A stretch of 64,000 nt of DNA from assembly GCA_963764165.1 (NCBI GenBank), contig CAVXRD010000001.1:320001-384000 (forward strand). Direction: 5' to 3'. A program made the position numbers and the translations under genes. Positions 4,989 to 11,336 of this stretch are shown here, one piece after another. The notes under the pieces were generated by a model, which was given only the letters and a program-made list of their open reading frames with translations, searched no databases and was not told the origin of the DNA. How positions within the stretch are numbered: the first letter of the stretch is position 1; each line of letters starts with the position of its first letter. The stretch comes from an uncultured Verrucomicrobiae bacterium. Its GTDB lineage: Bacteria > Verrucomicrobiota > Verrucomicrobiia > Limisphaerales > Palsa-1400.

Positions 4989-6473
4989 ATGAATTTTGAC
5001 CCGCAATGGATGCCGCTTGTGAACCATTACAACGCCGCGCTGACACGCCGCCAATTTTTCCGCCGCAGCGCCGCCGGACTCGGAGTAGCCGCGCTTTCTT
5101 CGCTGCTCGGCCCCAGGGCGTTTGCGCTGGAAAACAGCGACACGCCCGGACCCGATAGCTTGTGGCGGATTGCGCCAAAAGCGAAGCGCGCCATTTACAT
5201 TTCGCTCATCGGCGCGCCATCGCAACTGGATCTGTTCGATCACAAGCCCGATTTGCGGTCGCGTTTCAAGGAAGACTTGAAGGATTGGCTGAAGAAGGAA
5301 GGCGAGCGCCTCACCGGCATGACGTCCGGCCAGGACAAGTTTCCGCTCGCGCCGTCCATGTTCAAATTCAAGCAATACGGACCCAGCGGCGCGTGGATCA
5401 GCGAGCTGCTCCCTTGGCACGCAAAGATGGCGGACGATCTTTGCTTCATCCGCTCGATGCACACCGATGCCATTAATCACGAGCCGGCCAACCAATTGGT
5501 TTACACCGGTTCCATGATTAACGGCAAAGCCTCCATTGGCTCGTGGCTCGCCTATGGCCTTGGCTCGATGAATCAGGAATTGCCCACGTTTGTCGTGCTG
5601 CACGCCACGCACTCAAGCCCTTATTCCAACGTGCAGGCCATCACTGCGCGGCTGTGGGGTCCAGGATATCTCCCCGGCAAATACGCAGGCGTCGCGCTGC
5701 GGGCCAAGGGCGATCCAGTTCTCTACCTGAAGGACGCTCCCGGAATCTCGCGCGAAATGCGCCGCGAAATGGTCGAAGGCATCAATGCCCTGAACGAACG
5801 CTCTTACGCCGCCATCGGCGATCCGGAAATTCAAACGCGAACCCAGCAATTTGAGATGGCGTTCAAAATGCAGTCGAGCATTCCAGAGCTAACCGATTTG
5901 TCCAAGGAAACGGAAAAGACCTACGAACTTTACGGCGAGGACGCCAAAGTTCGCGGCACCTTCGCAAATTCGGCCTTGATGGCGCGTCGGCTGGCGGAGC
6001 GCGGCGTTCGTTTCGTGCAAATTTTCCATCGCGGCTGGGATCAGCACGGCAGCCTCCCGCGCGATCTTGCCTCGCAATGCAAAGACGTCGATCAAGGCTG
6101 CTATGGCTTGATCCAGGATCTCAAGCAACGCGGCATGCTGGAGGACACGCTGGTGATTTGGGGCGGCGAATTCGGCCGCACCGTCTATTGCCAGGGCAAA
6201 CTGGAGGAAACGGATTACGGGCGCGACCATCATCCTCGCTGCTTCACGATTTGGATGGCCGGCGGCGGCGTCAAGCCGGGCTTCGTCTACGGAAAAACGG
6301 ACGAAATGTCCTACAACATCGTCGAAAATCCCGTCCACGTTCACGAGCTGCACGCCACCATTCTCCACCAATTAGGAATCGACCACGACAAACTCGCCTT
6401 CAAATACCAGGGCCTGGCCCAGCGCTTGACGGGAGTGGAGCCGGTCAATTACGTCAAAGATATTTTGGCTTAA
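4989..6473 (+). CDS. DUF1501 family protein (Tat-exported)
   Basis: TRRQFF twin-arginine motif, [27 protein letters not shown]; usual partner of DUF1553 genes. Confidence 0.9.
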
Positions 6474-6502
6474 ACATTTTTCCCGGGCGCAGCCCGCTGT
6501 CC

Positions 6503-6530
6503 AAGGTAGGGACGCCTCGCCGAGGCGTCC
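6503..6530 (+). repeat. REP family A (GTAG-type), left arm of a REPIN
   Basis: AAGGTAG-GGACGCCTCG-C-CGAGGCGTCC; the inverted partner starts at 6649 and is interrupted by a MITE and IS110. Confidence 0.9.
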
Positions 6531-6661
6531 GGGGACGTGGCGTTCTACACATGCGACCTCACTTTATAAAAGCACGTATTGCGATCTCGTTGGCGCATAT
6601 TCGCAGAACGTTAGAGGAATTGCTGCGTCAACAAAATGCCACAACCTCGGACGCCTCGGCG

Positions 6662-6801
6662 GAGACTGTCTCAAAACTCAAAAACGGCTTTAAAAAGCAC
6701 CACAAAAACACCCTCGCCGAAAATAAAAATGCGCCATATCGCAAATGAGAGAATCATAGTATTGACACACTTTGAGGATTTTGTAGTTTTGAGACAATCT
6801 C
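6662..6801. mobile_element. 140-bp MITE with 17-bp terminal inverted repeats and 4-bp target duplication (GGCG)
   Basis: Left GAGACTGTCTCAAAACT, right AGTTTTGAGACAATCTC (1 mismatch); GGCG at 6658-6661 and 6802-6805; removal restores the REP. Confidence 0.85.
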
Positions 6802-6864
6802 GGCGAGGCGTCCCTTGTATCTTCTTCTTATTCTTCTTGGTAATCCGATGTCGGATCTCCAAGT

Positions 6865-7048
6865 TGATGCCGCCTCTGCGCCTGCAGGCGCAGAGGCGGC
6901 GGCGGGTTTGAGAACGTGCGTCCCTTGAAGTCGCTGTCTCGGCAGCGAGCTCCGTAAGGTAGCGTGTTCCATTCCCGCCCATTGTTCCAAACTCGAACCG
7001 TTGCCTGAGCGCGTCTAACAACGCGGCTCGAATTTTACAAGTATGAGT
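6865..7048 (+). ncRNA. Predicted IS110 bridge RNA (5' hairpin, target-binding loop, donor-binding loop); ends approximate
   Basis: 32-bp palindrome 6869-6900; guides GCGTCCCT (6918-6925), TAAGGTAG (6955-6962), ACCGTTGC (6997-7004) and TACAAG (7036-7041) match target and donor. Confidence 0.85.
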
Positions 7049-7987
7049 CAGACCAATTCGCCTTCCATTCTCTTCGTCGGCCTCGACGTTGCCAAGTCCT
7101 CTTTGCAGCTTCACCTGGCCGCTCAATCCCATGCCCTCTCCAATGACGCCAAAGGCCATCAAAAATTGATCGGCCTCTTAAAGTCTCATCCAAGCGCCCA
7201 AGTGGTCTGCGAAGCCACCGGCGGCTACGAGCAGCCTGTGCTGGCCGCTCTCCATGAAGCCGCCATCCCTCTGAGCCTGGTCGAAGCCGGACGGGTCCGT
7301 CACTTCGCCAAAGCCAAAGGCAAGCGCGCCAAGTCCGATCCCATCGATGCTGCCGTGCTCTCCGCTTACGGAGCCGCCCTCCAGCCCGCTCCCACGCCCC
7401 AGGCCTCTCCCACCCAGCAGCAATTGACTCAACTGACAAGGCGCCGCCGCCAAGTGGTTGAACAGCTGGTCGTCGAACGCAATCACGCAGAACATTATGC
7501 CGACAGCTTTTCCCAAAAACAGTCCCGCCAGATCATCGCTCTGCTGGAAAAACAAATCGCCCAGTGCGAGCGGGAAATTGCCTCGCTCATGGACAAGGAC
7601 GCCGACTTGAAGAAAAAAGCCCAGCGCCTGCAGACCATCCCCGGCGTCGGCTCCGTCACCGCCGTTTGCGTCCTGGCTGAAATGCCCGAACTGGGCACTC
7701 TCGAGGATGGCTCCTGCGCCGCCTTGGCTGGCCTGGCCCCTTACAACAGCGATAGCGGCCAACAGTCCGACCAGCGCCACATCGGCGGCGGCCGGGCCGG
7801 CATCCGCCGAGCCCTCTACATGGCCGCCCTAAGCGCCGTTCGCTGCGACCGCATTCTCAAAGAGTTCTATTTGCGATTGCGGAATAACGGCAAAAAACCA
7901 AAGGTCGCCCTCACCGCCGCCATGCGAAAGCTTATCCTCCTTATGAACCGATTGCTGAAAAATCCCAATTTCCAGCTTGCCAGTTAA
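7043..7987 (+). CDS. IS110-family recombinase/transposase
   Basis: DEDD motifs GLDVAK, CEATGGYE, KSDPIDA; IPGVG; GLAPYNSDSG (catalytic Ser region); GKKPKVALTAAMRKL. Confidence 0.95.
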   Translation: MSQTNSPSILFVGLDVAKSSLQLHLAAQSHALSNDAKGHQKLIGLLKSHPSAQVVCEATGGYEQPVLAALHEAAIPLSLVEAGRVRHFAKAKGKRAKSDPIDAAVLSAYGAALQPAPTPQASPTQQQLTQLTRRRRQVVEQLVVERNHAEHYADSFSQKQSRQIIALLEKQIAQCEREIASLMDKDADLKKKAQRLQTIPGVGSVTAVCVLAEMPELGTLEDGSCAALAGLAPYNSDSGQQSDQRHIGGGRAGIRRALYMAALSAVRCDRILKEFYLRLRNNGKKPKVALTAAMRKLILLMNRLLKNPNFQLAS

Positions 7988-8127
7988 CACCGTTGCTACC
8001 TTAGAGTGGCGCCTTTGGCGCGAGATTATTCGTAATTGTATCGCAACGGATATTTTGGCGTGAGCCATTTCAACGCCAAGTTGCAAGCCAAGTGACAAAC
8101 GGCGCTTAATCGTATAAGCTTTTTCGT

Positions 8128-8352
8128 GTGAGTACCGTCACAGAAATTATCGAAGCGGTGCAGAAATTGCCGGAAGGTGAAAAAGCGGAATTTCTCGACC
8201 GCCTGCGCGAAATTGATTTCGAGGACGCTTGGGATCGGCGCATTGAAGCTGACGCCAAGGCCGGACGGCTGGATGCGATTTGGCAGGAGGCTCTCAAGGA
8301 CATAAAAACCGGGCACACAAAACCGCTCGATGAAGTCATTAACGACTCCTAG
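8128..8352 (+). CDS. Putative antitoxin
   Basis: MSTVTEIIEAVQKL...AWDRRIEADAKAGRLD, upstream of a RelE/ParE-like remnant. Confidence 0.75.
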   Translation: MSTVTEIIEAVQKLPEGEKAEFLDRLREIDFEDAWDRRIEADAKAGRLDAIWQEALKDIKTGHTKPLDEVINDS

Positions 8353-10986: not shown

Positions 10987-11336
10987 TTAGGCCGGCGGCT
11001 TGGTTGAAACCAAGAATTCCGACAATTGTTTTAATACGCGGCGATGTCGTTCGGGGGAAACCTCCCCGATCATTCCTATGACCTGCTGCCCTGTGTAAAT
11101 CGCCAGAAACCTGCGCGAATAAGCGAATCCACTTGCAATCCGCTGGCGGCAAAATCGTTGTCTGCGCGCAATATCAATTCGTCCAATCCATGCACTTGCT
11201 GACGCAATTGGCTGCTGACGCCGCACACCAAAAAATCGCCGAATGGCGGAAGGGTTCTCAGAAGGATAGCCGGTCGCGGCTTCCATTGACGGTCCGCTTG
11301 AGGCAACGGGACGAGGATTACGTCCCCTTCTTTCAC
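10987..11336 (-). pseudogene. PemK/MazF-family toxin, frameshifted
   Basis: MKEGDVILVPLPQADRQWKPRPAILL...DSLIR; 1-nt loss near 11108, continuing as FLAIYTGQQVIGMIGEVSPERHRRVLKQLSEFL. Confidence 0.8.

Follow-up and report, generated by a model that had tools for sequence, protein, structure and literature searches.

Organization of the locus

The window, the whole stretch of 64,000 nt that was analysed, derives from an uncultured Verrucomicrobiae bacterium. Near its left end lies an ORF for a 314-aa recombinase, preceded by a 229-nt left end and followed by a right end that reaches only 10 nt past the stop codon (Table 1). The ORF starts with an ATG at position 7043, contains the domains PF01548 and PF02371 (Pfam) and scored 208.7 bits with NCBIfam model NF033542, for which the cut-off is 140. 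Weak NCBIfam matches to TIGR-Tas and SidA were far under the cut-off, and these identities were rejected. The only matches in the PDB were IS621 (7e-36) and ISCro4 (IS622; E 1.6e-34), the latter with the same domains and compared on the level of the protein alone. D15, E57, D99, D102, S238, Y259, M260 and L263 are the counterparts of catalytic or wedge residues of IS621. The earlier claim of an intact 314-aa recombinase was thus confirmed by ORF, domains and catalytic residues.

Table 1. Features of the IS110-group element and its surroundings (positions in the window).
Feature	Position	Strand	Remarks
Left REP of inverted doublet, empty	6503..6530	+	GTAG head at 6506
Right REP of doublet	6648..6813	-	GTAG head on - strand; left target GGCGTCC 6807-6813; hairpin split by MITE
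140-bp MITE of IS1182-family element, outside the IS110 element	6662..6801		15-bp terminal inverted repeats
IS110-group element (putative bridge-recombinase element)	6814..7997	+	1184 bp counting both CT cores
Left CT core and right donor arm TGTAT	6814..6820	+	TGTAT conserved in homologues
-10-like hexamer TATCTT of putative junction promoter	6818..6823	+	sequence match
SL0, first 5' hairpin of predicted RNA	6836..6863	+	structure conserved, sequence not; z -4.2 here
SL1, second 5' hairpin (32-bp palindrome)	6869..6900	+	compensatory changes in 14/14 pairs
Predicted target-binding loop	6901..6980	+	left guide GCGTCCCT 6918-6925; right guide AAGGTAG 6956-6962; handshake C 6963
Predicted donor-binding loop	6991..7048	+	left guide ACCGTTGC 6997-7004; right guide AT 7032-7033 and CAAG 7038-7041
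IS110 recombinase ORF, 314 aa	7043..7987	+	D15, E57, D99, D102, S238-G239; wedge Y259/M260/L263
-35-like hexamer TTGCCA	7977..7982	+	17 nt from -10 only with ends joined
Left donor arm ACCGTTG and right CT core	7989..7997	+	sequence
Right target ACCTT (remaining REP head and flank)	7998..8002	+	sequence

All motifs named in a preliminary description of this DNA were found by a sequence check where it had placed them, including GCGTCC (6808-6813), CT (6814-6815) and TGTA (6816-6819) at the left junction. The element end at 8003 given there was wrong. The right CT core is located at 7996-7997, where the element stops, and positions 7998-8003 therefore belong to the host REP. The element has a short CT core on both sides and no terminal inverted repeats, and taking it out of the sequence leaves an empty target at both copies present in the genome. 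When we checked for the short (2-3 bp) subterminal inverted repeat (ATA...TAT), ACA (7987-7989) and TAT (6818-6820) agreed at 2/3 positions. Apart from this imperfect 3-bp subterminal repeat, all traits of the IS110 group that could be examined in the sequence are present. Features of the IS1111 group were absent: it has neither a long, RNA-bearing right end nor subterminal inverted repeats of 7-17 bp. We conclude that positions 6814-7997 very probably represent an intact, autonomous bridge-recombinase element of the IS110 group (IS621-like), for which we infer the RNA, the circle and the recombination.

To the right of the element, at 8128-8352 and onward, short ORFs are present which by eye resemble a toxin-antitoxin pair; the ORF at 11076-11336 is presumably PemK/MazF-like, likewise by eye. 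Neither of the two short ORFs scanned to the right of the element had a Pfam match.

Structure of the predicted bridge RNA

The left end is predicted to encode an RNA with two 5' hairpins (SL0 and SL1) followed by a target-binding and a donor-binding loop. The palindrome that forms SL1 is perfect, with 16-bp arms, and cannot be lengthened; by analogy, SL1 appears to be the counterpart of the 5' stem-loop of IS621. The right donor guide seems to be split into two parts, which would also resemble IS621. The 8-nt right target guide described earlier (TAAGGTAG, 6955-6962) and TACAAG in the donor loop (7036-7041) are both present in the sequence. The region 6850-7050 folded with z = -6.15, and 0/200 shuffled sequences were as stable. 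Because of this z value, and because the same model columns match the elements' own flanks in homologues (see below), the set of motifs goes beyond chance.

The consensus fold of 18 aligned left ends comprised the palindrome hairpin, the target loop and the donor loop. In this structure 95.7% of cells were paired and two-sided changes occurred in 32/46 pairs, compared to 34-43% for slid controls, a score that favours the structure since it was calculated on the alignment from which the structure had been derived. At least two 5' hairpins were found in 23/29 elements, the extra hairpin being located 5' of the palindrome. The RNA start at 6865 assumed earlier is therefore not supported, as the conserved hairpin at 6836-6863 lies 5' of it, and we place the start near 6830.

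The preliminary description had closed the donor loop by an ACTC/GAGT helix (6991-6994/7045-7048). These bases were indeed conserved, but the helix was absent from both minimum-energy folds. No compensatory change was seen for it in the homologues and 3/4 pairs were invariant. Invariant and unformed in the single-sequence folds, the helix is the weakest part of the structure; conservation and analogy to IS621 give a weak indication that it may form over the start codon. The start codon and the conserved GAG of this helix overlap (7043-7048), and no obvious ribosome-binding site was seen there. Folding of the RNA over the start codon may limit translation of the recombinase. Some of the bases of the left target guide are paired with the right one in the free fold, and for this reason an open target loop is only a prediction.

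A search of 6400-8200 against Rfam gave four weak matches only, all far under the gathering scores. Model R1 matched the genome at just the two left ends (150 of 1735 candidates scored), and neither orphan bridge RNAs nor MITEs of the IS110 element were found in the genome. One of two enterobacterial IS110 elements matched model R1 weakly (28.1 bits). The homologous element at locus L028 (2430-2566, - strand) has a left end that lacks the palindrome and the entire target loop, while SL0 and the donor loop are kept; the gap is probably a deletion that occurred after insertion.

Guides covary with the flanks of homologous elements

Homologues were present in 18/61, 35/401 and 28/401 genomes, each at the threshold of its own search. 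We built a model from the alignment of the 18 left ends and ran it on the window and on 68 of 92 homologue loci; it matched all but one. Four of the 70 model matches were left out (three were short, one had no target loop), and the remaining 66 rows comprised 54 distinct guide pairs. The model columns served to read the guides, and the ends of the elements were fixed by the donor-side sequence and not by the target guides.

The preliminary description had expected guides to covary with targets, and this covariation was strong across the distinct guide pairs. The left guide matched its own flank at 164/280 positions (n=40; 95.5 expected) and the right guide at 210/276 (n=46; 85.4 expected). In both cases 0/20,000 permutations reached the observed value, although these counts overstate the significance, since the homologues are related and not independent. 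At right positions RT1-5, we counted 45, 43, 38, 36 and 35 matches of 46, respectively, and at RT6 13/46 with 11.4 expected. Left positions LT4-7 showed 27, 28, 31 and 29 matches of 34, compared to 14 and 15 for LT2-3 (expected 10.3 and 10.7) and 8 for LT1 (expected 9.4). Clear covariation of the left guide is confined to the four core-proximal bases. Possible wobble pairs were seen at LT1-3 (8, 8 and 5), and these positions may therefore be tolerant and not unread. When guides were read in a free register, 150/203 matches were obtained compared to 111.7 expected. Reading the guides by a fixed pattern was given up, as it lost 37/83 loci with a match and, in one subclade, placed the left guide in the wrong register.

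The right target guide is read here with 7 nt. The eighth base included earlier is not supported, because copy 2 of the element (see below) continues with ACCTCG and RT6 is close to expectation in the clade; only 19/269 REP heads read ACCTTA.

Six metagenome loci lay outside the model. Four of these are distinct new elements, which by eye matched their right flank at 5/5, 5/5, 4/5 and 5/5 positions. The other two (L119, L120) represent the element of locus L001, with 1/5 matches at the right flank. The L001 element carries one extra base, and the right match is 6/7 if this base bulges. L001 DNA was also found in metagenome contigs and in a genome bin titled Bifidobacteriaceae, possibly by a binning error. 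The left guide of L068 matched its flank at 1/7 positions. The left end of this locus (L068:376-579) has no palindrome hairpin, and the flanks fit neither of its guides; it is possibly a hybrid of two elements. Loci L006, L073, L117 and L118 have, independently of each other, guides for other repeat heads ending in CTAC (GTAG-type). Further homologues aim at non-repeat or pyrimidine-rich sites.

These data also bear on whether the protein itself might recognise the REP hairpin or its GTAG end, the matches in the left end being relics of target capture and not guides. Both copies of the element are located in a palindromic REP, and for ISPpu10 a stem-loop in the target is described as a further determinant (10.64898/2026.03.19.712850). 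However, close homologues with different guides match different targets, often without a hairpin, and the left target paired upstream in only 2/32 rebuilt sites compared to 7/32 control flanks. A target stem-loop like that of ISPpu10 is thus unsupported as a trait of the clade among the 32 rebuilt sites. In addition, the REP stem at copy 1 is split by the MITE, although either insertion may have come first. We regard recognition by the protein alone as highly improbable and retain guidance by the RNA as the explanation.

The second copy and the REP target

The 7.0-Mb genome harbors exactly two copies, which are identical over 1184 bp; copy 2 is located at G000:C2:1264210-1263027. Both are inserted in GGCGTCC|CT|ACCT, followed by TA at copy 1 and by CG at copy 2. 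Copies at unrelated sites would have spoken against the earlier reading, and 2/2 were in GCGTCC|CT|ACCT. The identity over exactly 1184 bp, together with flanks that differ outside of the REP, fits transposition and not duplication.

Both insertions thus target the head of GGTAGGGACGCCTCGCCGAGGCGTCC, a repeat with a GTAG head and an imperfect palindrome, for which 269 empty heads (5.8 expected) and 62 inverted doublets were counted; empty sites with GCGTCCCTACC numbered 268. Only 2 of about 271 heads are occupied. Read out from the guides, the target GCGTCC-CT-ACCTT has 117 perfect 13-nt sites, 114 of them in a REP-like context. Based on a crude gene model, most REP heads lie outside ORFs, with 74/269 inside, compared to 192/320 control sites and to a crude coding fraction of 87.7%. 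Two intact RAYT genes lie between inverted REP copies (L113:112-573, - strand; L114:142-633, + strand). A search with PF01797 revealed 10 Y1 genes in the genome, none of them beside the target REP. It missed the two RAYT genes, which were found only by tblastn with proteins of relatives and were confirmed by scores over the NF047646 cut-off. Two more RAYT genes are present in relatives. The 269 empty heads and the two bracketed RAYT genes identify the repeat as a true GTAG-type REP. It was found in 10/24 sampled genomes of the family and in 0/16 others. Five further empty REP heads are located in the window (25046, 29174, 38321, 38425 and 54700). Taken together, the earlier assignment of an IS621-type bridge-RNA architecture with a CT core and REP targeting appears to hold on the level of the sequence.

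The small number of copies, just two compared to 117 perfect 13-nt target sites, would also be expected if the element were as described here but now inactive, the two copies dating from an earlier event or from duplication of a segment. The exact 1184-bp identity with differing flanks outside of the REP argues for transposition instead of duplication, and no defect is seen in the ORF, the catalytic residues, the guides or the two promoter halves. We consider a loss of activity improbable.

The left target GGCGTCC is at the same time the 3' arm of the REP stem, which is intact at copy 2 and at 198/269 empty heads. RNA pairing may thus provide the address while, for the element studied here, the REP stem-loop makes insertion more efficient, as described for ISPpu10, with which it shares the guide layout of 6 + CT + 5. 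The stem is interrupted at copy 1, though, and the 32 rebuilt sites gave no clade-wide signal for a target stem-loop. Such a contribution of the stem is conceivable but rather doubtful in our view; it would be an add-on to RNA guidance and not an alternative to it.

Donor side and putative junction promoter

The left donor guides were identical to the own donor arm at 7/7 positions in 46/48 elements with seven arm types, a count that is partly circular because the right core was chosen by the best match to the guide. The handshake base of the target loop complements donor position 7 in 48/48 elements, as expected from the handshake of IS621. In the donor loop the handshake base is T7042, which is not complementary to the C at target position 7; the corresponding base is so in 19/40 homologues.

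Joining of the ends creates TTGCCA-17-TATCTT, which agrees with a promoter at 9/12 positions as a sequence match only. This placement also points to an RNA start near 6830. In a strict promoter scan 5/27 joined ends were positive, including the element studied here, compared to 0/27 integrated left junctions; the other 22/27 joined ends failed. Four DNA sequencing runs contained only short or partial pieces, none across the element or the circle junction, and were uninformative either way.

Based on IS621 and ISPpu10, we propose that low read-through transcription would lead to excision of the element as a circle. For IS621, a preprint argues for single-strand excision that needs only the donor half (10.64898/2026.08.31.748434). 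The joined ends of the circle would then form the TTGCCA-17-TATCTT promoter, and the RNA made from it would start near 6830, stop near 7048 and measure about 215 nt. A recombinase tetramer would open GCGTCC-CT-ACCTT with the help of the target loop and ACCGTTG-CT-TGTAT with that of the donor loop, and strand exchange would take place at CT via S238-DNA intermediates. Landing in REP heads would keep insertions mostly between genes.

Comparison with known systems

The guide mechanism of IS621 and its REP targeting have been published, and its natural target ATCAGGCCTAC is the CTAC end of the E. coli REP, as stated in the available excerpts of PMC11208160, PMC11208158 and PMC13626964. For our comparison the features of IS621 were taken from papers and not from IS621 DNA. 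As far as these excerpts describe IS621, the recombinases of both elements are of the DEDD + Ser type and agree in their catalytic and wedge residues. Both elements also have an RNA in the left end, a CT core, an 8-nt left donor guide, a junction promoter, a handshake base after the right target guide and the CTAC end of a host REP as target, several of these being predictions for the element studied here. The proteins are only distantly related (127.6 bits in phmmer), and the element has its own target and donor sequences. According to the same excerpts, the natural right guide comprises 7 nt here but 4 nt in IS621, and clear covariation on the left covers four bases and the core, compared to a 9-nt left guide in IS621. 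Two 5' hairpins and a predicted RNA of about 215 nt contrast with one hairpin and 177 nt.

ISPpu10 of P. putida, likened here from the available parts of its published description, also has a REP target and a CT duplication (10.64898/2026.03.19.712850, PMC1525189). A junction promoter and an RNA that extends as far as the start codon, both predicted for the element studied here, guides with 6 positions on the left and 5 on the right, and a strict right side with tolerant distal left positions are further similarities reported there (10.64898/2026.03.19.712850). Elements of the IS1111 group share the recombinase family and the RNA guidance, but their seek/bridge RNA is in the right end, whereas the RNA predicted here is in the 229-nt left end. 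A survey from 2006 dealt with insertions of IS110 and further IS families in REPs (PMC1525189). Our literature search revealed no paper that combined IS110, bridge RNA and Verrucomicrobi*; the Durrant supplements may list the clade.

Mechanism and REP targeting are already known from IS621 and ISPpu10, and the element is a new example and not a new kind of system. It leaves the mechanism unchanged and opens no question beyond those that IS621 and ISPpu10 made testable. What it contributes is an intact bridge recombinase of small size (314 aa) whose right guide is long by nature, a trait that improved specificity when engineered into IS621; longer right guides also occur in some IS621 orthologues, according to the available excerpts (PMC11208160, PMC11208158, PMC13626964). 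More than 50 natural guide-target pairs map the positions read by the clade.

Only tentatively, and with more doubt than confidence, the element may be assigned to a distinct compact subtype of bridge recombinases with more than 50 guide variants in the order and class of the host. Its footprint would be shifted to the right (about four strict left positions + CT + five right, compared to 7 + 2 + 2 in IS621), and it would have two 5' hairpins and a donor loop over the start codon, so that a single transcript would have to serve as either guide or mRNA. The REP, maintained by RAYT, would be shared in this host with an IS1182 family directed at the hairpin loop.

An IS1182 element and its MITE in the same REP

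The MITE that splits the right REP is flanked by a GGCG duplication (6658-6661 and 6802-6805). Its parent, locus L103 (G000:C1:66876-68558), is a 1683-bp IS1182 element encoding 486 aa. This element is present in 27 copies with 99.9-100% identity, 24 of which are located in REP loops by pattern and three in REP-like hairpins by eye. The MITE gave 22 matches, likewise in the loop of the REP hairpin, and both the IS1182 element and the MITE insert with a 4-bp duplication. REPs interrupted by IS1182 or MITE insertion account for 42/269 empty heads. The same REP is used by RAYT, by IS110 (at the head) and by IS1182 (at the loop), three mobile elements in all. None of the entries listed in our literature search describes IS1182 insertion in REP hairpin loops, and the loop insertion of IS1182 and its MITE is possibly more novel than the IS110 finding. 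One MITE copy lies directly beside the IS110 element, in the REP to its left.
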